Assembly: GCA_045605805.1 (NCBI GenBank)
Contig: JAZUQR010000010.1
Span: 64,001 to 128,000, forward strand
Source of the DNA: Alphaproteobacteria bacterium
GTDB taxonomy: Bacteria > Pseudomonadota > Alphaproteobacteria > CAAHEQ01 > UBA3637
DNA: 64,000 bases
Reading direction: 5' to 3'
Shown here piece by piece: positions 2,093 to 16,639 of this stretch. A program made the position numbers and the translations under genes. The notes under the pieces are model-generated. The model ran no database searches and was not told the DNA's origin. It saw only the letters and a program-made list of their open reading frames with translations. The stretch's first letter is position 1, and each line of letters opens with the position of its first letter.

Positions 2093-2476
2093 ATGAAATA
2101 TATTTTACTTGGGCTTGCTTGTTGTCTTTTTTTCGGATGTGCTTATCACAATCCGTTAGACAAGGCTGATTTTCGTTTTCAAACATTGAATGCGCCCCCT
2201 TATATTCTTTCCGGTTGGTATCGGGTGAATCAAGCGGGTCAGCCTTTAACTGTTTATGTGGAAAAAGAACAGATGGATTTGGAACGCAGAAAACAAGCCG
2301 TTGCAGATAAATCGGCCAATGTGGCCTATCTTGGTCGGCCCTGTCAATACTTTCAAACACCTATTTGTCACGAGGCGTTAGAGGCACAATCTGTTGAAAA
2401 CGCCCTTCAAAAGGGTATTTTACAACTTCAAAAAAAGGCTGCCACTGAAACGGTTGTGGTGAAAGGATTAGAATGA
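2093..2476 (+). CDS. Lipoprotein resembling the N-terminal half of an alpha/beta-hydrolase family
   Basis: Lipobox LFFG-C; NVAYLGRPCQY motif; ends before any GxSxG. Confidence 0.55.
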   Translation: MKYILLGLACCLFFGCAYHNPLDKADFRFQTLNAPPYILSGWYRVNQAGQPLTVYVEKEQMDLERRKQAVADKSANVAYLGRPCQYFQTPICHEALEAQSVENALQKGILQLQKKAATETVVVKGLE

Positions 2477-3423
2477 AAAAAGTATGGGTTTTGGCTGATG
2501 ATCGGGCGGGCAATGTGAATCAATTGTTGGGCATTGCCGAGGCGTTGGGGTGGCCCTATGAGCGCAAAGAAATCCGCTATAATAAATGGGTGCGGTTGCC
2601 AAATTGGCTTAGAGGGCACACCTTTATTGGCCTTGATAAAGCCTATCAATTAGCTCTTATGCAAGATTTTCCGGATGTGCTTTTAAGTGCGGGGCGCAGA
2701 AGCTATCCTATTGCTCGGGCCATTAAGCACCTTTCAAAAGGAAAGTGTAAGATTATTCAGCTGATGAATCCTTTGAACAATTTAGGGGATGCCGATTTAA
2801 TTGTTTTACCGTTTCATGACAATTGGCGGGGCAAAGCCGAAAATGTGGTTCAAATGCTTGGTACACCTCATCGGGTCACTGCCCAAAAACTGAGCTTGGA
2901 AAGACAGCACTGGCAACAGGTGATGAAGCAATATCCCCCAAAACGGTTAAGTTTATTTGTAGGCGGGGCAACCAAAAACAAGCCGTTTTCCATTGAAATG
3001 GCTGATGATTTGATTCGGGCGGTGAAAGAGTTGAAACCAGCTTCTGTATTGGTAACAACTTCCAGACGCACACCCTTGGATATTGTTCATCATCTTAAAA
3101 CGCATTTACCCAAACCTTATTTTTTCTATCAATTTGGGGATGAAGGTGAAAATCCTTATTTTGGATTACTCAGCTGGGCGGATATGATTCTTGTGACGGG
3201 CGATTCTATGTCTATGTGCACCGAATGTTGTGCCAGCGGTGTGCCCGTTTTTATTTTTGCGCCCGATGGGATGGTCAGCGCAAAACATAAACGCTTTCAT
3301 GATACCCTGTTTCAACATGGTTTTGCGGCTCCTGTGGGGGGGGAAGCTGTGTTGGCTCATCCGCCCCTGAATCCTGCCACTGAGATTGCAGAACGCATTC
3401 AAGCGTTGTTTGAAAAGAAATAA
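2473..3423 (+). CDS. ELM1/GtrOC1-family protein (mitochondrial fission ELM1-like)
   Basis: DDRAGNVNQLLGIAEAL, VTTSRRTP, ENPYFGLL, VTGDSMSMCTE..G.PV. Confidence 0.85.
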   Translation: MKKVWVLADDRAGNVNQLLGIAEALGWPYERKEIRYNKWVRLPNWLRGHTFIGLDKAYQLALMQDFPDVLLSAGRRSYPIARAIKHLSKGKCKIIQLMNPLNNLGDADLIVLPFHDNWRGKAENVVQMLGTPHRVTAQKLSLERQHWQQVMKQYPPKRLSLFVGGATKNKPFSIEMADDLIRAVKELKPASVLVTTSRRTPLDIVHHLKTHLPKPYFFYQFGDEGENPYFGLLSWADMILVTGDSMSMCTECCASGVPVFIFAPDGMVSAKHKRFHDTLFQHGFAAPVGGEAVLAHPPLNPATEIAERIQALFEKK

Positions 3424-3427
3424 TTAC

Positions 3428-3456
3428 TTGCTTTTTTATGCTTTTTTGGATATAAT
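3428..3456 (+). promoter_or_regulatory. Sigma70 promoter of tRNA-Arg
   Basis: TTGCTT-17 nt-TATAAT. Confidence 0.65.
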
Positions 3457-3467
3457 GATTTTTATCA

Positions 3468-3544
3468 GCGCCTGTAGCTCAGCTGGATAGAGTGTTGCCC
3501 TCCGAAGGCAAAGGTCGTGAGTTCGAATCTCGCCAGGCGCGCCA
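3468..3544 (+). tRNA. tRNA-Arg(CCG)
   Basis: Cloverleaf: GCGCCTG/CAGGCGC acceptor stem, TAGCTCAG, anticodon loop CTCCGAA, GTTCGAATC, CCA end. Confidence 0.97.
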
Positions 3545-3561
3545 AATAAAAAAAATAATGC

Positions 3562-3590
3562 TTGCATTTTACAATAAAGTTGTGTATAAT
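3562..3590 (+). promoter_or_regulatory. Sigma70 promoter of tRNA-Gln
   Basis: TTGCAT-17 nt-TATAAT. Confidence 0.65.
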
Positions 3591-3610
3591 GTGTGCTATC
3601 CAAGTTATCT

Positions 3611-3685
3611 TGGGGTGTCGCCAAGTGGTAAGGCAACGGTTTTTGATACCGTCATTCGTTGGTTCGAATCCAGCCACCCCAACCA
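3611..3685 (+). tRNA. tRNA-Gln(TTG)
   Basis: TGGGGTG/CACCCCA acceptor stem, CCAAGTGGTAAGG D-arm, anticodon loop TTTTGAT, GGTTCGAATCC, ACCA end. Confidence 0.97.
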
Positions 3686-3845
3686 AACCGCACATAACGC
3701 CAATTATTGGTGTTTTTTCCTTTATTTTACAAGCACTTTTATCAGCTCGGAATAACCTTTTTGAAAAATAGCTAAAAAATATCAATTCCGAACCGGCACA
3801 TAAAATTTTCCTTTAAAATCAATAGTGAGTCGTTGGGAAAATTTA
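3681..3845 (+). repeat. Arm repeat unit 0 (GCTCGGAA subtype)
   Basis: ACCA-AACCG..hairpin AACGCCAA/TTGGTGTT, TTTTACAAGCACTT, GCTCGGAA..TTTTTGAAAAA..TTCCGAAC. Confidence 0.6.
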
Positions 3846-3915
3846 CCAAGCCAAAAGTGGCTAAAATTTGAGGTTATCAGATTTTTAGCCTAGTACAAAC
3901 ATATCGAACCTGAAA

Positions 3916-4467
3916 TTAATGACACAATGCATCGTGACCAGGGTAATAAGTAAAATCCTCTTTGACTTGACCAACTATATTAATTCCATATGCTGTTTTT
4001 TCATCTTTTTTGTCTCGAGTCCAGGGACCAACACTGCCAATACTCGTTGGATTCAATTTTTCATTTATTTGCATTATCAAACTTTGTTCAGAACACCTTC
4101 CACTGGTGGGACATCCAAGTTCCTTTAAACTAAGTAATTTTTTTCCATATAAAGAACAAACATTTTCGGCTGATTTTAAATCAAATGCATCCCTAATAAC
4201 AATATATTCGTCTTTGCCACTTTTTATAACTGTACCTTCACTATCCATTTTAGAACAAGTTCCTTGAGGTTTAACTTGATAAACTTTTGTGTTTCTATAA
4301 CGACAATAACATTGCCCTTTAGAGCAAGTTTCGCCATTTTGATTTCTTTTTGAAATACAATCTGAATTCTCTGTGCAACTATCTCCTAAACGGGACGTAG
4401 CTGCCTCAGAGACGCTAATACAGAGTAGAGAAACACAGAAACAAGTTGAAATTATAATTTTTTTCAT
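3916..4467 (-). CDS. Secreted Cys-rich protein with probable C-type-lectin-like (DUF1566/intimin-like) C-terminus
   Basis: RBS AGGAG; signal peptide; SAENVC..YGKKLLSLKEL..PWT..AYGIN..ALC pattern. Confidence 0.55.
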   Translation of the reverse strand: MKKIIISTCFCVSLLCISVSEAATSRLGDSCTENSDCISKRNQNGETCSKGQCYCRYRNTKVYQVKPQGTCSKMDSEGTVIKSGKDEYIVIRDAFDLKSAENVCSLYGKKLLSLKELGCPTSGRCSEQSLIMQINEKLNPTSIGSVGPWTRDKKDEKTAYGINIVGQVKEDFTYYPGHDALCH

Positions 4468-4550
4468 TGGTTAGTCTCCTTTTTCTTTTCATTATACTTT
4501 ATAAAGAAATATATTTCAACTCTAAATTTCAGCTCGGAAATTGCACAACG

Positions 4551-4670
4551 AGTCCAGCCAAAACAGACAAGTCGCTATTTTTAGCGACTTTTTTATGATT
4601 TTACAATCACTTACACCGGTCCGTGTACAGCGTTTTTCAAAAAGCTCTTTTTTCAGCCCTACACTGACTT
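4551..4670 (+). repeat. Arm repeat unit 1 (TCCGTGTA subtype, truncated)
   Basis: CCAGCCA, AGTCGCTA/TAGCGACT hairpin, TTTTACAATCACTT, TCCGTGTA..TTTTTCAAAAA..TACACTGA. Confidence 0.85.
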
Positions 4671-4741
4671 TTATAAGAAGCATTTAGTAGTTTGACATTT
4701 CAAATGAATTATGTTAGTCTATAAAAATAAAAGGAGAAGGA

Positions 4742-5521
4742 ATGATTAGGTACTACTGTAGTGGATTTGATGTACATAATGCCTTTGGACATGGTTTGGG
4801 TGAGATGTTCAAATCAGAATTAAAAGATACTAGGAGTATTGTCTATATTCCTGGCGGTTCGGACAAAATTGAAAAAGTACAAACGAAATATGTTCCCACT
4901 TTTACCAATTATTTCGGTAATGTGGGAATTAAATTTGATCAAGTAAATATTTTTACTCCCAATATACAACCAGAACAAGCAGCTAAAATGTGTGAAAATG
5001 CCAGCTTTATTGTTTTGATGGGCGGTTGTCCCTTTAAACAAAAACAGCTGTGTGAAAATTTGGGAATTATGCAACAACTGAAAGATTATAAGGGGATTAT
5101 GGTGGGTATGAGTGCGGGGGCTATGTTGATGTCAAAAAATATTATAATTACCCCATGTAGTGCGGAATATCCAGATTTTCACATAGAAGATGGTTTAAAT
5201 CTAGATGGGATTTCAATCTATCCACATAATAATACTTCAAATGTGAACTATCCAGATGAGTTAGTCGTAGGAGATGAAACGTATAAAAAATCGGATTTGA
5301 TTGAGGCTGCTCGCCAATGTGGTCCATTTTATTTGTTGCAAGATAACCCCAGAGAAAATGGAAAAACAGATGTCAGCATTATTAAGTCCACCAATGGAAA
5401 AATTGACTTTTACATTGAAAATGATGGAAAAATCTGGATGGTTGATAAAGATATAAAACCTATTACAGATTTTAAGAAGACACTTTATCAACGTAAAATT
5501 AGTCCGTGTATTGCAAGATGA
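4742..5521 (+). CDS. Peptidase S51 / class I glutamine-amidotransferase-like (PepE-type)
   Basis: IVLMGG, GMSAGAM nucleophile elbow, IYPH; own promoter TTGACA-17-TAGTCT at 4692-4720. Confidence 0.8.
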   Translation: MIRYYCSGFDVHNAFGHGLGEMFKSELKDTRSIVYIPGGSDKIEKVQTKYVPTFTNYFGNVGIKFDQVNIFTPNIQPEQAAKMCENASFIVLMGGCPFKQKQLCENLGIMQQLKDYKGIMVGMSAGAMLMSKNIIITPCSAEYPDFHIEDGLNLDGISIYPHNNTSNVNYPDELVVGDETYKKSDLIEAARQCGPFYLLQDNPRENGKTDVSIIKSTNGKIDFYIENDGKIWMVDKDIKPITDFKKTLYQRKISPCIAR

Positions 5522-5832
5522 CCCTAGCCAAACCGTGCAAGTCGTCAGAAATGGCGACCAATTCCAACATCAATTCATTCTGCGTTGCCACTTGAATTCA
5601 TTGTGTTTCATTGCTTTACGCATAAAAACTTGCCACTGGCAACTTTTTATTTGCGCAGTCTTTATTTTACAATCACTTATACTGGTCCGTGTACAGTGTT
5701 TTTCAAAAAGCTCTTTTTTCAGCCCTACACGGACTCAAAATCCCAAAAAGCCTTATTTTACAATGCTTCTGTCTTGGGATGTCAATTTTTCATCCCAGAG
5801 AGAGGAAGATGTATTCAGACTCAAATTTGATG
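5522..5832 (+). repeat. Arm repeat unit 2 (with ~100 bp insert)
   Basis: CCCTAGCCA, GTCGTCA/TGGCGAC hairpin, then TTTTACAATCACTT..TCCGTGTA..TACACGGA..TTGGGATGTCAATTTTTCAT..TGTATTCAGACT. Confidence 0.85.
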
Positions 5833-5965
5833 TAAAAATGGGAAATTTTTTATGCCCCATAACCTAAATTTTTTGTAAAATCAAGGTTGACTATAAAAAA
5901 CAAGAATAAAAAGCCCCATTTCAAGAGAAACAGGGCATTATTTTTTTGTAAAGAAAATTTGTTAA

Positions 5966-6568
5966 CTATTCTCGACCACCATTAGCTAACATTTTCTGCA
6001 TAGCTACAATTTTTTTTACCCCTTCATCTTTTGTTTGAACCGCAATCTTATAAAGTTCTGGATTGACATCTTTCAAAGAATCAACCAAGATCATGCGTGT
6101 TTGGAAATATTCTTGATGCCAAGACAATGGTTTCTTTGGATTAGGCTTATCTCTGGAGGTTTGAAAATTCATAATTTTTTCAGCTAACAAAATTTCTTGT
6201 GCCTGAGGAGACAGTGTTTTTGCCCATTCAGCTTTTTCTTCCCATTGCTCTTTCTTTGTTTTATTTTCGTCTTCTGGCTCTGTCATCAACTCTTGAATAA
6301 CAGACAAAACTTTTGGACCTGCGATTTGCTTAATTTGTTCCGGCGTTAAAGGAGATACACCTTCAGCAATTCGTTTTGTCTCAAAACATTTATGTAAAAG
6401 AGAAGCGCATACAGCAACTTCTTTGTCTTCGTTATCTAATGTAGAATGTTTTTGTACTAATTCTGTCGTTCCTTTAACTTGGTCCAACATAACCATACCA
6501 CCGCCATAGGTAACACCTTCGTGTAAACGCGTGGCATGATACAAACACTTGTTTTCTAATTCTGCCAT
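5966..6568 (-). CDS. Degenerate HD-domain protein, small alarmone hydrolase/Mesh1-like
   Basis: HATRLH, ASLLHKCFE (canonical AALLHDTVED), V.ELMTE, LAEKIMN; promoter TTGACA-17-TACAAT at 6606-6634. Confidence 0.6.
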   Translation of the reverse strand: MAELENKCLYHATRLHEGVTYGGGMVMLDQVKGTTELVQKHSTLDNEDKEVAVCASLLHKCFETKRIAEGVSPLTPEQIKQIAGPKVLSVIQELMTEPEDENKTKKEQWEEKAEWAKTLSPQAQEILLAEKIMNFQTSRDKPNPKKPLSWHQEYFQTRMILVDSLKDVNPELYKIAVQTKDEGVKKIVAMQKMLANGGRE

Positions 6569-6685
6569 TTTATATTCTCCTTTAATTTTAATATACTATA
6601 AAGAAATTGTATAATAAATGGAAAGATTTGTCAACATTTTTTACTGAGAATACCTCTAAATCAGTCCGCGTATTACCAGACTTCT

Positions 6686-6898
6686 CCCGCCAAAACAGAT
6701 AAGTCGCTAGAAATAGTGACTTTTTATTATTTTACAATCACTTATACAGGTCCGTGTACAGTGTTTTTCAAAAAGCCTGTTTTTCAGCTCTACACGGACT
6801 CACATTTCAAAAAAGCCTTTGTTTTCAATGCTTCTGCCTTGGGATGTCAATTTTTCATTCCAGAGATTGTTGAATGTATTCAGACTGAGCTTAGATGA
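6686..6898 (+). repeat. Arm repeat unit 3
   Basis: CCCGCCA, AGTCGCTA/TAGTGACT hairpin, then about 170 bp closely matching unit 2. Confidence 0.85.
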
Positions 6899-7033
6899 GA
6901 AAAAAGTGTTTCTATAACACGCTTATTTCTATTACCAGTTCTGGTGGCCTATTTCTTTATTTTTTTCTTGCTAAAAAAGCACACACATGCTACCCTATCC
7001 GTATATCAATAATAATTATTTACGGATAGAAAA

Positions 7034-8341
7034 ATGACAAAATATCGTATCATTGGCAATATGACCGGAAATTCTATGGATGCAATAGATTTAGTTTTAA
7101 CAGAATTTGACGGTGATATAATGCGAGACATTTGTACATACACAAAACCTTATTCTAAAGATATGCAGAATAAAGTTGAAAGTTTGCGTGCAAAGGTCTT
7201 TAATAAAACATCCACAGAGATAGAAACCCTTCCAGAATTTACTTCTGTCCATGATGAATATATTCGCCAAATTGCAGAATGTATTAATGAAATGTGTGAA
7301 AAATACGACATTGACAAAAACAATATTGATGCAATAGGATTTCATGGCAAAACACTAGACCATAATCCGCCATCAAAAGCTTGTTTAGACGGAAGTCAAC
7401 CTTATACTTTGCAAATCGGTTCAGGACAAATGTTGGCCGATTTAACAGATATAGCGGTTGTTTATGATTTTCGTTCAGATCCATTGATGGCCGGCTTTGA
7501 TGGCGCACCACTGGTTCCACCCCATAATGCTCATATTTCGGCAACAGAGGGAGATGGTTGTTATTATAATGGAGGTAACACATCAAACTTTGCTTTGGTA
7601 GTTGATGGCTCTGCACTAATAGGCGCAGATGCCGGACCTTTTAATGAATATACTGATAATTATATTCGCAACCATACCGATGAATCTTTTGATAGAGATG
7701 GAACGTTCGGCAAAAAAGGAATATTAAATAAAGCTTTACTGCAAGAACTATTTAATTTTGGTCGCAAATATTATGAAGCCCCTTTACCAAAATCTGGTGA
7801 TCCCGCTTATTATTACAAGGGACAAATTTTTCAATATATCAATCAGAAAAAATTTAAGTTTGAAGATGTTGTTCATACGTTTGAATATTTTGCAGCTTAT
7901 ATCGCTGTACAAGCTTTGAGTTTAATACCTAATGATATAAAAATACCAAATAAAATGATTTTGTTTGGTGGAGGCTGGAAAAACCCCATAGTTAAAGAAA
8001 CTTTTGAAAAATTACTAAAAGGTCAGAGATATGTTTTGCCGGAACATCAAGAACAGTTTACTAAATTGTTAAATCGCTTTTCTAGTTGTCCAGAAGTTCG
8101 CAACTCAACTTTTGGTGATTATATGGAAGCCAGATTGTTTGCTGATTTAGCTCGTTACAAATTAGATAATAAAGCGTGGGAAATTCCTGAGATAGTTAAA
8201 TCAAAAAAATCGGTAATATGCGGACGGGTTGCAAAACCAAATAAAGATCGTAAAGAATATAACGATAGAGTTAATCGTGCAGCTAAAGGTTGGCAAAATT
8301 CTAATAATGTTAAAAATAAAATAGTAACAATAGAATATTAA
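7034..8341 (+). CDS. anmK: Anhydro-N-acetylmuramic acid kinase
   Basis: IGNMTGNSMDAID, AIGFHGKT, TLQIG, DFRS..MAG.DGAPLVP, NGGNTSN, DAGPFN, FGGGWKN, MEA..FA. Confidence 0.85.
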   Translation: MTKYRIIGNMTGNSMDAIDLVLTEFDGDIMRDICTYTKPYSKDMQNKVESLRAKVFNKTSTEIETLPEFTSVHDEYIRQIAECINEMCEKYDIDKNNIDAIGFHGKTLDHNPPSKACLDGSQPYTLQIGSGQMLADLTDIAVVYDFRSDPLMAGFDGAPLVPPHNAHISATEGDGCYYNGGNTSNFALVVDGSALIGADAGPFNEYTDNYIRNHTDESFDRDGTFGKKGILNKALLQELFNFGRKYYEAPLPKSGDPAYYYKGQIFQYINQKKFKFEDVVHTFEYFAAYIAVQALSLIPNDIKIPNKMILFGGGWKNPIVKETFEKLLKGQRYVLPEHQEQFTKLLNRFSSCPEVRNSTFGDYMEARLFADLARYKLDNKAWEIPEIVKSKKSVICGRVAKPNKDRKEYNDRVNRAAKGWQNSNNVKNKIVTIEY

Positions 8342-8468
8342 TTATAATTCGTTTTTTACATCCAATATTTAGTAATTTTCTTGTAAAAATATAAAGGATT
8401 AGAAAGGTAGAACATAAAAAACAATGTGTTACAACCAATCATAATTTAGCTCGTGAATTGTGCACTGT

Positions 8469-8630
8469 CCCCAGCCAAAGGAAAGGCCTCCTTTATGGGT
8501 GTTTTTTTGTTGGGTTGAGGGGGTGAGAGCCAACGAATGGTTGGTTCGGTCACGAAGCGAAAGCGCAGTAGACACCGAAGGTGGTCCCGAAGGGATAAAT
8601 CGGCAAGCTGATTTACAATCCAGCCACCCC
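8469..8630 (+). ncRNA. RtT-like tRNA-derived structured repeat
   Basis: tRNA-Gln T-arm TTGGTTCG|AATCCAGCCACCCC split by 68 nt of short hairpins, mostly GNRA-capped (GCGAAAGC, CACCGAAGGTG, TCCCGAAGGGA, TAAATCGGCAAGCTGATTTA); same layout as the E. coli tyrT rtT repeats as I recall them. Confidence 0.65.
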
Positions 8631-8725
8631 CCCAGCCAAGTTGTGAGAGTCGTCAAATATGGCGACTTTTTCTTTTGCTTCTAAGTGCTTATTGTGGCTC
8701 GGAAGAAGATTTTGGAAAAGACCTA
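8631..8725 (+). repeat. Arm repeat unit 4 (GCTCGGAA subtype, degenerate)
   Basis: CCCAGCCA, AGTCGTCA/TGGCGACT hairpin, GCTCGGAA..TTTTGGAAAA. Confidence 0.65.
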
Positions 8726-8813
8726 GAAACAAACTGTCTCAAACTAAAAACAATTTGCTTTCAATATGTTGTATTTTGTGCCATTCTCTAATCCAAAAAT
8801 AGCAAAAATTCAA

Positions 8814-9371
8814 TTATCTCTTTTTTAAATCAGAAAATCTTCTATAAACAAGCATCTCTAAATTAGGATGATTTCTGCTTATACCCATTTCTTGACCGTC
8901 CCAAATATGACCTTGAGCCTCAGCAGCTTTTCTAGAACGTGTATTTTCTTTTTGAATTTTTAAGATAACAGAATCTATTCCATTTTCAAACAACACTTTT
9001 TCAAAAGCTGTTGTTGCTTCGGGGCCATAATGTTGCCCCGCAAATTGTTCAAAAAGCATAACACCGAGCTCAATACTTTTGGGATTGTTTGGATTATCAG
9101 GATTAAATGCTCCGATTGTTCCCATCAATTCATTTGTTTCTTTATTCCAGATGCCGTAATTTATTTCTTTTTCTTCTGATAACACCATTTTAATAAAAGT
9201 TTCTTCTTTTTCAAATGTCATCGGTTCTTCAAAATGAGGTAAAAATCGTCCTAGCCATTCTCTTGACTTGTTAATAGAATCCACTAATAACTGTATATAT
9301 TCTTTATCCAGTGTATGTTTTTTCAGGACAATGCGTTCAGCTTCTATTTGTTGTGGTAAAACTAATTTCAT
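8814..9371 (-). CDS. GNAT N-acetyltransferase, RimJ/RimL family
   Basis: LPQQIEAERIVLK, LMGTIG, IELG..L...FAGQHYG.EA, EN.RSRKAAE..G. Confidence 0.8.
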   Translation of the reverse strand: MKLVLPQQIEAERIVLKKHTLDKEYIQLLVDSINKSREWLGRFLPHFEEPMTFEKEETFIKMVLSEEKEINYGIWNKETNELMGTIGAFNPDNPNNPKSIELGVMLFEQFAGQHYGPEATTAFEKVLFENGIDSVILKIQKENTRSRKAAEAQGHIWDGQEMGISRNHPNLEMLVYRRFSDLKKR

Positions 9372-9443
9372 TTTTACAGCCTTTCAGAGATTTTCTATAA
9401 TTTAACATAGTTTTTCAGTTGATCAAGTTTCTTTTAGGACTTT

Positions 9444-9671
9444 TCAACAATCTATGCCATTTTCGGTGATTTGGCATTGTTCCACGACAGCCCCAACCGC
9501 TTGCTTAAAGTCATAGTTAAAAGAAGATATTTTATCCGAAATGATGTTTTCAATTGTCCAACGCAAATCAAAATCATCAAACGCCCAAGCCACTTTTACC
9601 ATACCGGACATCAGGCTGACAGTGGTATATACCACACAAAATCCCAAGAAAATAGCTTTTATTTTTTTCAT
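9444..9671 (-). CDS. Small secreted hypothetical protein
   Basis: RBS AAGGA; hydrophobic N-terminus ending AWA; two C-terminal Cys. Confidence 0.55.
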   Translation of the reverse strand: MKKIKAIFLGFCVVYTTVSLMSGMVKVAWAFDDFDLRWTIENIISDKISSFNYDFKQAVGAVVEQCQITENGIDC

Positions 9672-9684
9672 TTTTTCTTTCCTT

Positions 9685-10224
9685 TTATCTTTGAGTTTTA
9701 TACACTTTTTTCCCATTTGTGACATAGTCTTTTAACACTTGTTCCCCCGCCTCTGTTTCAAGGTTGCCATAGACAGTTATCCCTCGGTTCTTAAACTCGG
9801 TCAACCACCGTGGCTTAAAGCCTTCATCAAAGCCGGTTATTTCCTCTACACGCTTTGAAGGGACACCGTAATAGACCTCTTTGATACCAGACCACAAAAT
9901 CCTACCCAAACACATCATACACGGTTCGGCTGGCACATAAAGGGACAAATTATAAGGCGATAAATCATAAGTTTTCAAAACTTCTTGCGCTTTTTTAATG
10001 GTATTCATTTCGGCATGATGATGGCTGCATTGTGTTTGAACAACGGTATTCGCCTCTTTGGCAATCAAGTGTCCGTTTTCATCATACACTGCGGCCAAAA
10101 ACGGCCCATAGCCTTGTGTCATCATTTCTTTTAATTCTTGTTGAAGGGAGGCAATGATTTGGCAAGCCTGATTGACTTTTTGTGGATTTATTTTTTCATT
10201 CGCAATTATTTTTTGTGTGGACAT
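9685..10224 (-). CDS. Nucleoside deaminase (guanine deaminase/TadA-like, zinc-dependent)
   Basis: GPFLAAV, HAE, EPCMMC, GFDE. Confidence 0.85.
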   Translation of the reverse strand: MSTQKIIANEKINPQKVNQACQIIASLQQELKEMMTQGYGPFLAAVYDENGHLIAKEANTVVQTQCSHHHAEMNTIKKAQEVLKTYDLSPYNLSLYVPAEPCMMCLGRILWSGIKEVYYGVPSKRVEEITGFDEGFKPRWLTEFKNRGITVYGNLETEAGEQVLKDYVTNGKKVYKTQR

Positions 10225-10415
10225 TTTTATCTCCTTTTTTCATCATAAGAAAAAAGCGATTATTTGTAAAGTCTTATTTGAAGCAAAAGCCTTTGTGCAT
10301 TTTTTTCTTGATTTTTCTTTTGCTTTTTGTTATACTGTTTTTGTTTTGAAAAGGTTTAACATTCAATTCCCTTTATGGAATGCCTTTTTATAATTTACAT
10401 TTTTTTTGAGGCTTT

Positions 10416-10868
10416 ATGAAACAGAACAATCACAATCGTCAAAACAGACGCTTTAATAACAGAAATAATCGTCCCACACAAACCATTTATCGCAACACCT
10501 GTTTGGATTCTTCCGGACCTGCTGGTAAGTTGCGTGGAACGCCCTTACAACTCAACGAAAAATATGTGGCTTTAGCCAAAGATGCCGCCACTCAAAATGA
10601 TATGATTTTGGCTGAACAGTTTCGTCAATATGCCGATCATTATATGCGTTTACAAAACATTGCCATTGAAAATGAAAATGCTTTGAAGGCTTCAAAATCT
10701 GCCCAACAACAGGCGGGACAAGACTTGCCAAAAGACGAGGATTTGAATGCCAACGCTTCTGTGGAACAGGAAACACAACCGGCAATTCAAGAAGACTTAT
10801 CCGTTCCTGTGCAACAGATGAATGAAATGGCTGAGGTGGCAGCAGATTCTAATCCCGTGTCAGAATAA
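10416..10868 (+). CDS. DUF4167 domain protein
   Basis: DSSGP.GKLRGT..Q..EKY..LA.DA....D..AE...QYADHY.R. Confidence 0.85.
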   Translation: MKQNNHNRQNRRFNNRNNRPTQTIYRNTCLDSSGPAGKLRGTPLQLNEKYVALAKDAATQNDMILAEQFRQYADHYMRLQNIAIENENALKASKSAQQQAGQDLPKDEDLNANASVEQETQPAIQEDLSVPVQQMNEMAEVAADSNPVSE

Positions 10869-11238
10869 CAACCGCACCGGCAATTTTGTCATCTGCCAAT
10901 GACACAGAGGCTTGGACATTATCCCCAAACTTATATTTTAAGCGAGACATCATTTTTTTACTGAGTTTCAACTTTGGGGCACCATTGGTATCATGGCTTA
11001 GAGCCACATCTTTCAATCCGACAAATGATCCAAATCCCGTACCACACGCTTTGGCAAAAGCTTCTTTCACTGCATAATGTTTTGCCCCGTAATTGATTTG
11101 GCCTGTGGTTGATAATTCCTTGACTTCCTTAAACTCGCTTGGGGTGAGCATTTTTTTATAAAACGCAACGCCCCCTTTGTTTATAATGCGCTTAAAATGG
11201 GCAATTTCAACAAGGTCAAGACCCACTCCGACAATCAT
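10849..11238 (-). CDS. acpS: Holo-ACP synthase
   Basis: IVGVGLDLVEI, AVKEAFAKA.GTG, GAP; follows spoT. Confidence 0.88.
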   Translation of the reverse strand: MIVGVGLDLVEIAHFKRIINKGGVAFYKKMLTPSEFKEVKELSTTGQINYGAKHYAVKEAFAKACGTGFGSFVGLKDVALSHDTNGAPKLKLSKKMMSRLKYKFGDNVQASVSLADDKIAGAVVILTRD

Positions 11239-13157
11239 TTTTTCTCCTTCGTTTCATAAACCCGTTGAACACCTTTACAACTTCGTATTGCATCTAACAC
11301 ATCCAACAGATGATCTTTGCCTTTCACTTTTATCATCGCTTGGGCTTTTGTTTGGCTGTGTTCTTGGGATATAATTGTCATAGATTGAATATCTACTTTC
11401 ATTTTAGACAATTGATTGACAATTTGCCCCATACTTTCGGGATTTGTTTTCCACATAATACTTAATGCAACTACCTGTTTATTGTTGGTTTTATGTGTTG
11501 TGTTCCATTCTACACTCATCCATTTTTCCGTTTGTGTAAAGTACCTTTTCAAAATTGGGCAGTTTCTTTTGTGAATCACCACTTTATCGTTTTCTTTAAT
11601 GGCAATTATTGCATCTTTTTCTTTTGGATGGCACACTGTATCCAATTCATAAGGAATTCCCTCCGGCAAGCCCAAAATCTCGGGGTTCACTTTCTTTTTA
11701 GACCATATTTTTTCGAAAAATGATTCTTTTTTGGGGGCTTTTTCTTCACTGAAAAAGTTTTCCAACAACAATTTGGCATAGGCCGTTGTCACATCTTTCA
11801 ACCAACTTTTTTGAGCCACAATTTTGCTTGTCACTTTGAAGCTCACTTTATCACCATCATTCAGTTTTTGGTTTAATGGCGCTTTTTCGTTGTTGATTTC
11901 CACACCCGTGCATTTTAAGGCCACTTTTGACCCAAGATAACAAGCAAAGTCTAACGCTGTGGCGCCCTGAGGTAAAGAATAGACAATCCCTTTGTGATCA
12001 AAACAAAAGATTTTATTGCGTTCCATATGCAATTTCGCTCGTCTTAAAAATTCGGCCGGACTTTCGGTGTTTGAAATAAGGGTTAAAAACTCTTTCATCC
12101 AAGGCAGATTTTTACCATCATATTTTTCGCCTTGTTTATATGACCAATGGGCGGCCATTCCAAACATTGCTGCTTCTTCCATTTTTTCCGTTCTGATTTG
12201 GATTTCAAGGGGGATTCCTTTTGACGACATTACCGTTGTTTGAAGTGATTGATAGCCGCTGTCTTTTGGAGTGGATATATAATCCTTAAAACGCCCCATA
12301 ACGGCACGATATCGTTGATGGACAAGCCCCAAAGTTTTATAACAATCTGGGATATTCTTTGTAATGATTCTGATTCCCAAAACATCAAAAATGGACGACA
12401 TTTGATTTTGATGCGTTTGCAATTTGTGCCATAATGAATAAGGCATTTTTACACGCCCAATCACACGAGCTTTGATTTTTGCCACACTCAATATCGTTTC
12501 AATTTCCTGAATCAGATTTTGGATGCTTATGTTTTGTTTCTTTTGCAACCCATTTATTTTTTGTGTTAAATTGTTATAGGCTTGCGGATTCAGCACACGA
12601 AACGACAAATCTTCCAATTCTGTTTTGATTTTATGCAACCCTAATCGTTCTGCCAATGGGACATAAATATCCATTGTTTCTTGAGCTTTGCGTCGTTTCT
12701 TTTCTGCGGAACAAATATCCAATGTACGCATATTGTGAAGTCTATCCGCCAATTTGACAAACAAAACACGAATATCTTTACTGGATGCCAAAATCAACTT
12801 TTGAAAGTTTTCGGCTTGACCACTTGCCGAAGATTGCAACTGATAACTTTCCAATTTGGTCAACCCTTGCACCAAATCGGCCACACGTTTGCCAAACAAC
12901 GCTTTGACCGAATCGTATGAAGCCGGTGTATCTTCCACCGTATCATGCAGTAAGGCGGCCATAATTGTTTCGGCATCCATTTTATAGGCTAACAAGATTT
13001 CGGCAACGGCCAACGGATGAATCAGGTATTTTTCCCCTGTTTCTCGTTGTTGATCATAATGCATTTTTTCCGCAAAGATACAGGCTCTGCGTAAGCCTTC
13101 AATATCTGCCTTTTTATCGTATTTCTTAACCGATTCTATCAGCTCATCCGACCGCAT
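11235..13157 (-). CDS. spoT: Bifunctional (p)ppGpp synthetase/hydrolase
   Basis: HPLAVA, AALLHDTVEDT, KLADRLHNMRT, GRFKDYISTPK, EIQIRT, TGS and ACT domains. Confidence 0.93.
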   Translation of the reverse strand: MRSDELIESVKKYDKKADIEGLRRACIFAEKMHYDQQRETGEKYLIHPLAVAEILLAYKMDAETIMAALLHDTVEDTPASYDSVKALFGKRVADLVQGLTKLESYQLQSSASGQAENFQKLILASSKDIRVLFVKLADRLHNMRTLDICSAEKKRRKAQETMDIYVPLAERLGLHKIKTELEDLSFRVLNPQAYNNLTQKINGLQKKQNISIQNLIQEIETILSVAKIKARVIGRVKMPYSLWHKLQTHQNQMSSIFDVLGIRIITKNIPDCYKTLGLVHQRYRAVMGRFKDYISTPKDSGYQSLQTTVMSSKGIPLEIQIRTEKMEEAAMFGMAAHWSYKQGEKYDGKNLPWMKEFLTLISNTESPAEFLRRAKLHMERNKIFCFDHKGIVYSLPQGATALDFACYLGSKVALKCTGVEINNEKAPLNQKLNDGDKVSFKVTSKIVAQKSWLKDVTTAYAKLLLENFFSEEKAPKKESFFEKIWSKKKVNPEILGLPEGIPYELDTVCHPKEKDAIIAIKENDKVVIHKRNCPILKRYFTQTEKWMSVEWNTTHKTNNKQVVALSIMWKTNPESMGQIVNQLSKMKVDIQSMTIISQEHSQTKAQAMIKVKGKDHLLDVLDAIRSCKGVQRVYETKEKK

Positions 13158-13705: not shown

Positions 13706-15403
13706 ATGACAAAAAAGAAATACTTGATTACCTCTGCTTTAACCTATATCAACGGCTTGCCCCATATCGGCCATTTGGCCGGGGCCATGCTCAATGCCGA
13801 TATTTATGCCAGATATTTGCGTGCCAAAGGGGAGGATGTTTTGTTTGTGGGCGGTACGGATGTGCATGGCACGAAAATTGAAGTAGAAGCCAAAAAAGAG
13901 GGCTTATCCTTAGAGGCTTTCATCAACAAATATCATTTGGAACACAAAAAAGTTTATGAAGGTTTTAATTTGTCTTTTGATGCGTTTGGTAATACTGATT
14001 CCAAACAAAACGAAGAAATGACCTATCGTATTTTTGAAGGGTTAGACAAAAACGGTTATATCTCAGAAAAAATTACACAGAGGGCTTATTGTGCTGATGA
14101 TGAACAATTTTTGGCAGACAGCCAAGTGGGGGGTACTTGTCCTTATTGTGGTTATGAAAAAGCAAAGGGCGATCAGTGTGAAAACTGCACAAAGCTGTTG
14201 GAACCGGAAGAATTAAAAAATCCTTACAGCACCATTTCGGGCAGCAAAAATATCGTTTTCAAAGAAACCAAAAATCTTTTTATTGATGTGGATAAAATGC
14301 AAGACAATTTGAATCGCTGGGTGGAAACAAAAAAAGGTATTTGGTCTGACATTGCTTATACAACCGCAAAAAAATGGCTGAATGAAGGCTTACAGGCTCG
14401 GGGCATTACTCGTGATTTGAAAAACGGCTTTACCGTTCCCCGTGAAGGATATGAAAACAAAGTGTTTTATGTATGGTTTGATGCCCCGATTGGATATATC
14501 GGCATTACAAAAGAATGGGTAGATAAAGACCCTTCTAACCGTTCATTGGAAGATTGGTGGTTAAACCCAGATGAAGTTATTCATACCGAGTTTATGGGTA
14601 AAGACAATATTCCATTTCATTCCATCTTTTTCCCAGCTATGTTATTTGGATCGGGCGAAAAATGGACACAAGTTCATTTCTTAAAAGCAACAAGTTGGTT
14701 GAACTTCCCCGGTGGCAAGATTTCAAAATCCGAACATCGTGGTGTGTTTTTGGATGAGGCTTTGGAAGAGTTTCCGGCTGATTATTGGCGTTATTGGATT
14801 TGTGCCAACTGTCCAGAATCAGACGATTCGTTGTTCTCGTTTGATTCCTTCCAAGCCACCATCAACAAGGATTTGAATGATGTGCTGGGCAATTTTATCA
14901 ACCGTGTTTTGAAGATGACTCATAACAACTTTGGGGATGTTGTGCCACCTTTAGGGGCTTTCACCGAAAAGGAAACCACTTTGTTTGCCACATTGGATGA
15001 CTTGATTCAAAAATACACCAAACAGATGGACGCCATTGAGTTTAGAAAATCGTTGGCGCTTTTGCGTGAGATTTGGACCGTGGGCAACAACTATATTGCC
15101 CAGACAGAACCTTGGAAAGTTGTCAAAGAAGATAAAGAATATGCAGGCACTATTTTGAACATTGCTTTGAATTTGATTTGGCTGTTTGCTCAGCTGAGTG
15201 CGCCTGTGATGCCACAAACTGCCACAAAAATGTTGGCTCTGTTTAACAAAGAGCCTTCCTTTACATGGCCTTGTGGCGAGGCAAAAGAATTATTATCCAC
15301 ACTGAAATCCGGTGACGCCTTTACACCAAGCGAACCACTTTTCAGAAAAATTACGGATGAAGAAAAAGAACTTTTGAAACAAAAACATCATGAAGGGGTA
15401 TAA
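13706..15403 (+). CDS. metG: Methionine--tRNA ligase
   Basis: HIGH, GTDVHG, zinc knuckle CPYC..CENC, YVWFDAPIGY, GKDN, KISKS. Confidence 0.95.
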   Translation: MTKKKYLITSALTYINGLPHIGHLAGAMLNADIYARYLRAKGEDVLFVGGTDVHGTKIEVEAKKEGLSLEAFINKYHLEHKKVYEGFNLSFDAFGNTDSKQNEEMTYRIFEGLDKNGYISEKITQRAYCADDEQFLADSQVGGTCPYCGYEKAKGDQCENCTKLLEPEELKNPYSTISGSKNIVFKETKNLFIDVDKMQDNLNRWVETKKGIWSDIAYTTAKKWLNEGLQARGITRDLKNGFTVPREGYENKVFYVWFDAPIGYIGITKEWVDKDPSNRSLEDWWLNPDEVIHTEFMGKDNIPFHSIFFPAMLFGSGEKWTQVHFLKATSWLNFPGGKISKSEHRGVFLDEALEEFPADYWRYWICANCPESDDSLFSFDSFQATINKDLNDVLGNFINRVLKMTHNNFGDVVPPLGAFTEKETTLFATLDDLIQKYTKQMDAIEFRKSLALLREIWTVGNNYIAQTEPWKVVKEDKEYAGTILNIALNLIWLFAQLSAPVMPQTATKMLALFNKEPSFTWPCGEAKELLSTLKSGDAFTPSEPLFRKITDEEKELLKQKHHEGV

Positions 15404-15405
15404 TT

Positions 15406-16614
15406 ATGGAAAAATCACGCAATACCGGTAATTTTTTGTTTATTATTTTTTGGTGGCTTGTGCAACATTTGAACATTCGTTGGGCTCATAAACTTTTATA
15501 TTGGGGATTAAGAGATGGTTCTTTCCCTTCGGGGCATATGTCCGATCCGATTTTAGGGATTGATTTATTTGGTCGCCATTTATCCACGCCTCTTGGTATT
15601 TCAGACGGTGTGGATAAACGGGGAAACATTTTAGACACCTTGATGCAGATGGGATATAGTTTTGGTACTTTTGGACCCTATACTTTGGAAAAAGAGATGC
15701 CCCCCAATGAAAAGTTTTTTTTCAAAAAAGATAAGGCTATTATTACTCAATGTACAGGATATCGCAACCCTGGTATCTTAAAAATGATGCCATGGTTTGT
15801 GAAGCGTCGTTATTTACCTCATTTTGTTGGGATTGACATTGCCATTCCTGCGGAAAATGAAGAAAGCAACATCAAACAGGGGCGACATTTTGCTTATGTG
15901 GATGAATTTGTTTTAATGTCACAACGCATTGCACCTTATTGTGATTTTATCACTTTGGATTTTTCGCACACCAACTCGGAACTGTGTGTTTTAATGGTGG
16001 ATGCTTCAACGATTTTGCCCATTATTCGGGCTGTTAAAGAAACCGTGAAACAGGCCGCCCCTATTCGCCCACCAAAGGTTTTTGTTAAAATCCCGTTGGA
16101 TTTGAATATGATGGAGATTCCGCTTGTTGCTCAAACTCTTTTAGGCGGTGAAGTGGATGGTGTTGTTGTGGCGGGCCCTATGTCTTTGGCCAAAAATACA
16201 CGCATTCGCATTCAAGGCGCAAAAGAACATCAAATGTCGGGCATGGTTATTGGTCAACCCACACATGAATATACCACCGAACTTATTCGGCGTTTATATA
16301 CCCATTTGAAAGGCCGGATTCCCATTATTGCTTGTGGCGGTGTGTTTGACGGTAAAAGTGCTTTTGAACATATTGCGGCCGGTGCTTCTTTGGTTTCCGT
16401 GGATGAGGCCAGCTTGATTTTTGAAGGCCCTGGCATTATTCACAAGATTCATAAAGAATTGATTGAAATTTTACACAACAAAAAATTTCATTCTTTTGCC
16501 GAAGCCATTGGTTGCGACACCCAAGAGGTTATTGCTGAGACAGCTGTACCTATGACTGCACCGCAACCGCAATCAACGCCTATGGAAAATTCTGTACCAC
16601 CGCATCAAGGTTAA
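15406..16614 (+). CDS. Divergent class 2 dihydroorotate dehydrogenase-like protein
   Basis: P.G...G.DK, VFVKIPLDL, IPIIACGGVF, AGASLV retained; substrate-binding motifs altered. Confidence 0.7.
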   Translation: MEKSRNTGNFLFIIFWWLVQHLNIRWAHKLLYWGLRDGSFPSGHMSDPILGIDLFGRHLSTPLGISDGVDKRGNILDTLMQMGYSFGTFGPYTLEKEMPPNEKFFFKKDKAIITQCTGYRNPGILKMMPWFVKRRYLPHFVGIDIAIPAENEESNIKQGRHFAYVDEFVLMSQRIAPYCDFITLDFSHTNSELCVLMVDASTILPIIRAVKETVKQAAPIRPPKVFVKIPLDLNMMEIPLVAQTLLGGEVDGVVVAGPMSLAKNTRIRIQGAKEHQMSGMVIGQPTHEYTTELIRRLYTHLKGRIPIIACGGVFDGKSAFEHIAAGASLVSVDEASLIFEGPGIIHKIHKELIEILHNKKFHSFAEAIGCDTQEVIAETAVPMTAPQPQSTPMENSVPPHQG

Positions 16615-16639
16615 GTCATTTCAAAAAAAAGGGGGGGAT

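Follow-up and report, generated by a model that had tools for sequence, protein, structure and literature searches.

Downstream of the tRNA-Gln(TTG) gene in a 64,000-nucleotide (nt) stretch of an alphaproteobacterial draft genome (G000:C10:64001-128000; hereafter the window), we found a tandem array of five small cassettes, each combining cargo with one conserved module. The genome comprises 1.21 Mb in 31 contigs and is 98.85% complete. We interpret positions 3686-9416 as non-autonomous integrative cassettes accumulated at the tRNA 3' end by a recombinase supplied in trans, and assign this reading a probability of roughly 0.68. Encoded elsewhere, this recombinase would join the module of a circular cassette to a core, either that of the tRNA end or that of a joint already in place. 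Stacking would then proceed head to tail, with attP-like internal joints made of left arm, core and right arm. The tRNA would stay intact, its native terminator would be displaced to the far end, and the first hairpin of the right arm would double as a terminator. Each cassette consists of one module of about 300 bp and a cargo of 0.5-1.3 kb that can face either way and apparently has its own promoter. The joints would be products of site-specific recombination, the cassettes may still be mobile, and the mover may be among the candidate enzymes discussed below.

Five cassettes follow the tRNA-Gln(TTG) gene

Only two tRNAs reach the Rfam gathering scores in the window, and five genes lie downstream of the second one, tRNA-Gln(TTG), on strands -,+,-,+,-. 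The G+C content of the array is 31-37%, compared with 43-47% upstream. A repeat finder returned a five-copy family (D3) starting at 3678, 4553, 5523, 6685 and 8631, in line with the five units that an earlier reading of this DNA, made from sequence only, had placed at about 3681, 4554, 5522, 6686 and 8631. It also returned an 80-nt family with three copies of 88-89% identity (D2), a 177-nt pair of 85% identity (D1) and a three-copy family just left of the cores (D4), which corresponds to a conserved left arm of about 25 nt. A pattern describing the first hairpin of the units gave eight strand-matches in the window, equivalent to four sites (4570, 5540, 6702 and 8648), all of them within the array. 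By chance 0.49 matches were expected, and eight were reached in none of 100 shuffles.

Several details of the sequence-only reading could be confirmed. The short cores resembling the tRNA 3' end read as described there, the gene orientations are mixed, and the stop codon of the PepE-like gene (5519-5521; Peptidase_S51-like in Table 1) abuts the next core, which starts at 5522. The T-run-displacing insert and the degenerate unit also exist, with units counted from zero: the insert (5559-5661) belongs to the unit starting at 5522, whereas it is the unit at 8631 that is degenerate. Furthermore, neither an integrase nor a transposase was found in the window, in that the contig has no Phage_integrase or Resolvase match and no Y1 or IS110 match; DDE transposases were not searched for.

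Three elements go beyond that reading, namely the left arm, a sixth joint at 8445-8477 and a segment at 8478-8630 that lacks an open reading frame (ORF). In the joint at 8445-8477, left arm and core are not followed by a standard right arm. The ORF-less segment contains, in order, a terminator hairpin, an inverted copy of the tRNA 3' half (8505-8539), a T-stem-like stretch interrupted by a 66-nt structured insert, and a partial tRNA 3' end, beyond which lie the GNAT cassette's core and right arm. This segment recurs after tRNA-Gln(CTG) on contig C25 of the same genome, with 90% identity over 226 nt. Judged by this sequence match, material has probably been exchanged between the tRNA-Gln(TTG) and tRNA-Gln(CTG) loci, since both genes end in nearly the same core.

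Table 1. Features of the tRNA-Gln(TTG) array, in window coordinates (P, left arm; P', right arm; aa, amino acids; E, E-value; 11/12, promoter-like score)
Feature	Coordinates	Strand	Basis
tRNA-Arg(CCG)	3468-3544		Found with tRNA-Gln(TTG) by tRNA searches
tRNA-Gln(TTG), array anchor; last 7-9 bases are the first core	3611-3685	+	ARAGORN; Rfam tRNA, 63.3 bits
Cassette 1 right arm (P') with terminator-like hairpin at 3696-3714, boxes 1 and 2, and second inverted repeat	3686-3880	+	Terminator scan; arm profile match 3714-3851, E 5.5e-13
Cargo 1: 183-aa protein, no family match	3916-4467	-	ORF; no Pfam or NCBIfam match; promoter-like site 4519-4491, 11/12
Joint 2: left arm (P, ~25 nt) and core CCAGCCA	4528-4560	+	D4, D3
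Cassette 2 right arm: hairpin 4570-4589, box 1, second inverted repeat; without distal part	4561-4700	+	Profile match 4563-4677, E 9.2e-13
Cargo 2: Peptidase_S51-like, 259 aa	4742-5521	+	Pfam PF03575, 3.9e-11
Joint 3: left arm overlapping the S51 gene end, and core CCCTAGCCA	5498-5530	+	D4, D3, sequence
Cassette 3 right arm, split by ~100-nt mini-insertion 5559-5661	5531-5800	+	D1, D2; profile match 5637-5799, E 2.1e-20
Cargo 3: HD-domain protein, 200 aa	5966-6568	-	Pfam HD_4, 4.7e-5, under curated cut-off
Cargo 3 signals: promoter-like site (11/12); terminator	6634-6606; 5936-5913		Scan
Joint 4: left arm and core CCCGCCA	6662-6692	+	D3
Cassette 4 right arm, the most complete one, with hairpin 6702-6721, boxes 1 and 2, and inverted repeats 2 and 3	6693-6864	+	Profile match 6695-6864, E 1e-29; alignment
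Cargo 4: AnmK-like kinase, 435 aa	7034-8341	+	Pfam PF03702, 4e-51
Joint 5: left arm and core CCAGCCA, then terminator like that after tRNA-Gln(CTG) on C25	8445-8477	+	D4; 90% match over 226 nt
ORF-less segment between joints 5 and 6	8478-8630	+	I1; same layout on C25; fold z-score -2.57
Joint 6: core CCCAGCCA (8631-8638) and cassette 5 right arm, hairpin 8648-8667	8631-8798	+	Profile match 8642-8798, E 7e-23
Cargo 5: GNAT acetyltransferase, 185 aa	8814-9371	-	Pfam PF13302, 1.6e-15
Distal array end	9372-9416		Flank common to four metagenome runs begins at 9417

The cargo proteins are mostly unrelated to one another, while the arms are alike. Family searches upheld four of the earlier cargo calls (peptidase, HD, AnmK and GNAT, the HD match being weak); the protein once called lectin-like matched no family. 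None of the five carries a recombinase domain in Pfam or NCBIfam. In arrays of relatives, 61 cargo ORFs match 54 Pfam families, and the 25 commonest of these comprise binding proteins, acetyltransferases, peptidases, hydrolases, transferases, kinases and transporters; no recombinase is among these 25. Related cargo can occur in different settings. A homologue of the AnmK-like protein, 64% identical, adjoins cassette arms of another type in G001, and an acyltransferase pair is found behind tRNA-Thr in the genome under study and behind tRNA-Ser(GCT) in another (G011).

The module has a fixed architecture and a core matched to its tRNA

We collected 73 distinct joints from this genome and its relatives, 25 of them adjacent to a tRNA and 48 internal. 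An internal joint consists of left arm, core, spacer, hairpin, box 1, inverted repeat 2, box 2 and inverted repeat 3. The left arm of about 25 nt begins with AGTYCG and contains a 6-bp palindrome. The core (6-9 nt) is the same as the 3' end of the anchoring tRNA, and the spacer measures 9 nt in 36 of the 41 internal joints with a recognisable CCA. With a right arm of about 180-230 nt, the whole module reaches about 300 bp. The first hairpin with its T-run scores as an intrinsic terminator, and the arms of the second inverted repeat repeat the left-arm motif. In the tRNA-proximal joint, the tRNA stands where the left arm would be.

An alignment of 24 modules (about 180 columns) from six tRNA species and seven genomes was folded with RNAalifold, which recovered the first two inverted repeats. 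One pair of inverted repeat 2 is maintained through a double change, being UA in 14 rows and CG in 10. The core changes with the tRNA: it is CCAGCCA for Gln, TCCGACCA for Pro, CTCCACCA for Tyr, CAACCA for Met and CCGCCA for Ser, and Lys has its own as well. At tRNA-Ser(GCT) of the genome under study, two cassettes are followed by a left arm, a core and a different terminator, which is an attR-like layout. This joint pattern is expected if circles carrying left arm, core and right arm integrate successively at a tRNA end.

The discriminator base of the intact tRNA-Gln(TTG) (3677-3685) is A (CCAACCA at the end). It is G (CCAGCCA) in all later cores (4554-4560, 5524-5530, 6686-6692, 8471-8477 and 8632-8638) and in the tRNA-Gln(TTG) of four sister species. 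Because of this difference, the present tRNA 3' end may have been brought in by the cassette added most recently.

The arms are linked to tRNA genes throughout one order

A profile of the arm detected 18 copies in the genome, including all five window units. Fourteen of them lie at most 5 kb downstream of a tRNA on the same strand, namely Pro-CGG, Ser-TGA, Thr-CGT, Gln-TTG (five), Lys-TTT, Leu-CAA, Gln-CTG, Met and Ser-GCT (two), and two more adjoin partial tRNA ends. By rough arithmetic, the space downstream of tRNAs makes up about one-tenth of both strands, and about two matches would fall there by chance. Thus, the tRNA linkage proposed earlier holds, but for many tRNAs and not for tRNA-Gln alone.

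The locus varies among relatives. Synteny of the upstream gene and of both tRNAs extends to four congeners. Two of these sister species (G020 and G009) have an empty site, with the DUF4167 gene (here from 10416) starting at most 45 nt after tRNA-Gln. In G008, one unrelated gene separates tRNA-Gln from the DUF4167 gene, and in G005 a gene of the G008 type is accompanied by one GNAT cassette with a hairpin. The cargo content therefore differs among relatives, as the sequence-only reading had predicted.

The strict hairpin motif occurs in 20 of the 21 genomes of the genus and in 62 of the 80 genomes of the order, spanning 13 of its 16 genera, and reversed controls gave no match in either set. It is absent from all 149 genomes of other families of the class and from the one same-family genome in the class-wide sample. 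These counts are minimal, as the motif misses variants such as the first hairpin behind tRNA-Glu(CTC). Fourteen arrays were retrieved from eight other genomes in the genus, and 10 of these arrays have a hairpin that begins 9-10 nt past the end of a tRNA (Pro-GGG, Met, Tyr, Gln-CTG, Ser-GCT or Ser-GGA). These 14 arrays contain up to five cassettes with one or two genes each, and their hairpins are about 0.6-2.7 kb apart. Across the order, at least ten tRNA species serve as anchors. Viral contigs gave no match to the arm pattern (hairpin end plus box 1), and no phage vehicle was seen.

These data bear on the possibility that the units are an ordinary dispersed repeat, either of the repetitive extragenic palindrome (REP) or miniature inverted-repeat transposable element (MITE) type or a regulatory terminator module, or that the array is an assembly chimera. 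The first hairpin is indeed terminator-like, two small insertion elements live in the arms, and a 31-contig draft could contain misassemblies. However, the tRNA-linked copies are co-oriented with their tRNAs, each joint holds the end of its own tRNA, and the site is empty in two sister species. Moreover, similar arrays exist in the eight other genomes, and metagenomic contigs span the boundaries between cargo and joints. We regard this explanation as already largely refuted and very improbable. None of the outcomes that the sequence-only reading had named as speaking against it (a fixed gene order, a scattered repeat or a chimera) was observed.

Metagenomic contigs differ by whole cassettes

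Twenty sequencing runs from nine studies contain 19-45% of the sampled words of the stretch, and contigs from four runs of four studies were placed on it at 90% likeness. Array parts without cover (e.g., 3935-4241) were not counted as absent, and neither were word shares of 0.2-0.45. All four runs have contigs on both flanks (2400-3680 and 9417-11600), with patchy cover of the cassettes between them. In run X8, a 1,024-nt contig passes through the HD cassette to 6693 and continues into a distal-like terminator (side 27 nt), skipping the AnmK cassette. In runs X1 (side 64 nt) and X8 (side 31 nt), position 8533 is joined to 9417, so that the GNAT unit is skipped. A backward joint leads from 8630 to 6689 in X1, X5 and X19 (sides 20-32 nt). 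It represents a circle junction or a different order of cassettes, as at tRNA-Gln(CTG) in other strains, and the contigs fit both. Boundaries from cargo to joint are spanned by independent contigs, for example records 30 and 31 of X8. Together, these contigs provide fair, not conclusive, evidence that whole cassettes are gained and lost within the species.

Such differences could also arise if the joints were made site-specifically once and the cassettes are now shuffled, lost and gained by homologous recombination only. Cassettes would then leave by loop-out at direct repeats and return by Campbell-type integration of DNA that was taken up, and a dedicated recombinase would not be needed. Arms of about 200-300 nt that are 85-90% alike within the array would provide substrates. 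Some arms are mosaic, in that cassette 4 has a right arm of the GTCCG type and a left arm of the GCTCG type at its end, and some metagenomic joints lie inside arms (e.g., 4576 to 5548 and 5659 to 6817). Nevertheless, homologous recombination alone would not preserve three inverted repeats, their spacing and a compensatory change across genera, nor would it hold the core matched to each tRNA. In addition, the population breakpoints with the best support are at cores (6693, 8471-8479 and 8630). We therefore consider this explanation unlikely.

Several observations weigh against cassettes moved by a recombinase in trans, and some of them also favor homologous recombination. No recombinase is encoded in the window and none has been seen acting. 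At least one of the two candidate recombinase families introduced below was found in 43 of 62 motif-positive genomes and in 9 of 18 motif-negative genomes, and neither in 19 of the 62 (hand tallies); G061, a 100% complete genome with a three-cassette array at tRNA-Gln(TTG), has neither. Beyond a genus-wide pair of Xer-like enzymes, no recombinase family tracks the arrays across genomes. That pair of tyrosine recombinases is present in 21 of 21 genus genomes, yet the array has no dif-like site. Cassette arms were not seen beside a recombinase in 17 further tyrosine-recombinase stretches. The arms of the complete elements differ as well: the three direct arm repeats of the integrase islands are absent from the cassettes, and at three loci the serine-recombinase elements have left arms unlike those of the cassettes, with only the sequence after the core in common. 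Dyad symmetry around the core is weak (mean 0.30 complementary positions versus about 0.25 elsewhere). Among the metagenomic joints, others lie within arms or have sides of about 20 nt and may stem from other arrays; as placement was at 90% likeness, several sides are shorter than 30 nt and arms are recurrent, other arrays or relatives are possible sources. Finally, cargo homologues in different arrays are 25-64% identical, and no recent transfer was caught.

Candidate recombinases

The genome has six Phage_integrase and eight Resolvase matches, none on the contig of the window. Neither a Y1_Tnp nor an IS110 match was found in it, DDE transposases lying outside the search. An origin of the IS200/IS605 type was rejected, as the genome has no Y1 (HUH) transposase.

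Two of the tyrosine integrases, of about 590 aa, with an N-terminal DUF6538 domain and encoded on C21 and C7, adjoin tRNA-Thr and tRNA-Glu. This family is present in 17 of the 21 genus genomes, and 26 of its 30 loci hold a tRNA. All loci share one layout of tRNA, hairpin and three direct arm repeats. Across the 30 loci (L095-L124; 17 genomes), at least 18 tRNA species are used. Judged from these sequences, core specificity seems to change easily in this family while arm specificity stays. The strict hairpin of the cassettes was not found within about 1.5 kb at any of the 30 loci. The tRNA-Thr island in the genome under study measures 25.7 kb and ends in a 17-nt tRNA repeat, after which an ORF-less unit and cassettes follow.

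The second candidate is a family of large serine recombinases of about 570 aa, whose genes always follow a 130-160-aa ORF. They lie 0.9-3.6 kb from tRNA-Lys, tRNA-Met or tRNA-Ala(GGC). At three loci (C8 of the same genome, where the recombinase and its small upstream ORF occupy 16064-18186, G003:C39 and G059:C33), elements with such a recombinase abut cassette arms, and their cores of 6-8 nt are short like those of the cassettes. Copies near an integrase, anticipated by the sequence-only reading, are thus represented by the arrays in tandem with the tRNA-Thr island and with the serine-recombinase elements. The large serine recombinase and the DUF6538 integrase each occur in 34 of the 80 genomes of the order. 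In two genomes (G024 and G014), the only recombinases are two Xer-like enzymes and one large serine recombinase.

We rank the approximately 570-aa serine recombinase first, the approximately 590-aa DUF6538 integrases second, and an unseen enzyme or plain homologous recombination after them. The serine enzyme leads this ranking because the cores of its elements are just as short, because these elements adjoin cassette arms at three loci, and because there is a precedent of recombinase-less cassettes moved by such enzymes. The testable parts of the earlier proposal, in which a recombinase in trans would accrete non-autonomous elements, have held up. The trans-acting enzyme itself would not have to be a tyrosine recombinase, as assumed then, since a serine recombinase fits at least as well.

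Other enzymes were considered and set aside. Small serine recombinases (about 200 aa) are unusually common in the genus, with matches in 18 of the 21 genomes, most of them inside integrase islands. No case could be made for them as movers, and a crossover in the core would be at odds with a resolvase site located in the hairpin. A resolvase-type gene of about 200 aa is located inside or just after an array at two loci, L161 (12751-13359; G061, tRNA-Gln(TTG)) and L164 (6096-6716; G013, tRNA-Pro(TGG)). In the 17 further tyrosine-recombinase stretches, hairpins occur only at tRNA-Gln(CTG), about 3.7 kb from an Xer-like gene, which looks like synteny. The whole genome was scanned with a dif template, allowing eight changes. 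Dif-like sites were detected at two places (C4 and C26) and not on the contig of the window. Elements that depend on Xer, such as integrative mobile elements exploiting Xer (IMEX) and dif modules, do not fit, because by this template the joints lack a 28-bp dif-like site. The only good match to the template (seven changes) is near position 10857 of C4, at the contig end, and is a candidate chromosome dimer resolution site.

Two side observations concern the serine-recombinase loci. In eight stretches (L153-L157, L159, L160) from seven genomes and three genera, tRNA-Ala(GGC), three genes, an ORF of about 143 aa and a 568-aa serine recombinase appear in the same order, the tRNA being visible in six. 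This element looks fixed or domesticated more than recently arrived. On C8 of the genome under study (14353-18186 versus 65255-65331), about 50 kb lie between tRNA-Pro(GGG) and a partial copy (20 nt) of its own 3' end. This copy is preceded, at a distance of about 1 kb, by a large serine recombinase gene and is followed by a cassette. The locus is probably a large integrated element that has pushed cassettes outward.

Complete elements at the same tRNA ends raise the question whether each unit is a decayed remnant of a larger integrative element, which would make the array a graveyard and not a cassette system. The 25.7-kb tRNA-Thr island and the tRNA-Pro(GGG) serine element are of this kind, and decay followed by accretion is a published route to cis-mobilizable elements (CIMEs) (PMC5704250). 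On the other hand, the cassette arms are unlike those of both complete element types, and the cassettes are uniform in spacing and gene number. In the arrays that were read, we noticed neither a pseudogene nor a fragment of a recombinase. An element combining cassette-type arms with a recombinase was not found in a limited sample of 14 arrays and 30 integrase, 17 tyrosine and 18 serine stretches. Furthermore, independent decay would not yield scores of elements with the same complete module. We consider this explanation quite improbable, and retain non-autonomous cassettes moved in trans as the preferred reading.

Relationship to known systems

The array is best read as a product of site-specific tandem accretion of non-autonomous elements that comes close to an analogue of integrons, with a putative recombinase and putative present-day mobility. 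As in integrons, the cassettes mostly contain one gene, their cargo is diverse, each has one structured site and no recombinase of its own, and content varies among relatives. Integron cassettes are co-oriented, mostly promoterless and read from the promoter Pc, and attC sites are short imperfect inverted repeats with conserved outer core sites. Here, the joints share conserved inverted repeats with one compensatory pair, but the module is far longer than attC. No intI or attI lies beside the array, the head is a tRNA gene, the core is a tRNA 3' end that changes with the tRNA, and one genome has several arrays, one per tRNA. Cargo occurs in both orientations, with promoter-like sites (11/12) upstream of two minus-strand genes. 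Membership in the integrons was therefore rejected on the absence of intI and attI, the mixed orientations and the promoter-like sites.

In staphylococci, staphylococcal cassette chromosome (SCC) and pseudo-SCC elements include recombinase-less cassettes with short direct repeats, stacked at the 3' end of a conserved gene and moved by the large serine recombinases of other cassettes. Unlike the present array, they target a protein gene, use a different recombinase family, are much larger and have no long conserved arm. REP and MITE repeats differ in that the copies described here are anchored downstream of same-strand tRNAs.

CIMEs are described as att-flanked elements that lack integration and transfer genes, stand one after another at a target gene's 3' end and need the recombinase of another element (PMC5704250). 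They are presented there as decayed integrative and conjugative elements (ICEs) or integrative mobilizable elements (IMEs), few per site and heterogeneous (PMC5704250). Our units resemble CIMEs in having core and arms at both ends and no recombinase domain in the cargo. They differ from that description in being uniform one-gene units with one conserved module throughout an order, with no parent element found.

Tycheposons of Prochlorococcus are cargo elements found in tandem at several tRNA genes, forming variable islands in small genomes (10.1101/2020.12.28.424599). They encode their own integrase (tyrosine or large serine) and usually replication genes, have partial-tRNA att repeats of about 40 nt and carry several kb of cargo (10.1101/2020.12.28.424599). 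The tRNA target and tandem stacking are common to both systems, whereas our units lack the hallmark genes, share 6-9 nt with the tRNA at internal joints and have a long non-tRNA arm. In the additive flexible islands of Alteromonas, a conserved tRNA takes up cassettes whose number varies by strain (PMC4119200). There, a cassette is a block of several genes that can reach tens of kb and is tied to ordinary mobile elements, and the sections consulted describe no common module borne by the cassettes (PMC4119200). In full-text searches of the literature, we found no description of tRNA-anchored one-gene cassettes of this type.

Integrons are the textbook case of single-gene capture, and the present arrays bear on how cassettes originate and on whether other platforms capture single genes. 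What sequence alone reveals here is a second cassette system of independent construction, with hundreds of cassettes in 62 genomes, empty and filled sites, and a clear module of about 300 bp. It would explain how uncultured gut and rumen Alphaproteobacteria with small genomes (0.7-2.0 Mb) maintain a flexible set of genes for binding proteins, acetyltransferases, peptidases and enzymes of cell-wall recycling. A more far-reaching version, to which we give somewhat less than an even chance, is a dedicated tRNA-docked gene-capture platform paralleling integrons. It would have at least ten tRNA docks and a module acting as recombination site, as substitute terminator for the tRNA and as insulation between cassettes. 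Its recombinase would act in trans from unrelated larger elements and would probably be the serine enzyme of about 570 aa, and two tiny site-specific insertions confined to the arms would be its parasites or regulators. If the recombinase were identified, programmable docking at tRNA ends with short cores could become a tool.

Small insertions in the arms and the distal flank

Two types of small insertion occur in the arms. The mini-insertion of about 100 nt at 5559-5661 is located directly 3' of the first hairpin, and an arm in G001 has one at the same position (L086, about 3960-4055). Further copies are present in the genome under study at C27:72029-72121, C27:73707-73761 and C21:104484-104584, near tRNA-Met or inside the tRNA-Thr array. 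By its sequence and position, it looks like a small site-specific insertion element living in cassette arms.

The second type is an insert of 66-95 nt, rich in GNRA-like loops and ending in ATTTACA, which is always found directly after GTTCG or AGTCCG. Its location is either a T-loop-like stretch or an arm's second inverted repeat. Copies were seen in the window (8549-8614), in L001 (about 3490-3560), L004 (1600-1690 and 4655-4750), L073 (120-215) and L086 (about 3815-3905), and on C8 of the same genome (about 15250-15320). In the two loci with this insert that were searched by E-value, Rfam yielded tRNAs and matches at chance level, and no family for the insert. Three of four copies fold better than shuffled sequences on the plus strand (z -2.6 to -3.2).

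Finally, the region between the array and the DUF4167 gene (9417-10400) contains a 93-aa ORF and a cytidine/adenosine-deaminase-like gene (9685-10224, minus strand). These genes are covered in all four metagenome runs and are missing at the same site in G020 and G009. No joint was recognised in this region, which may be an older insertion with decayed ends.

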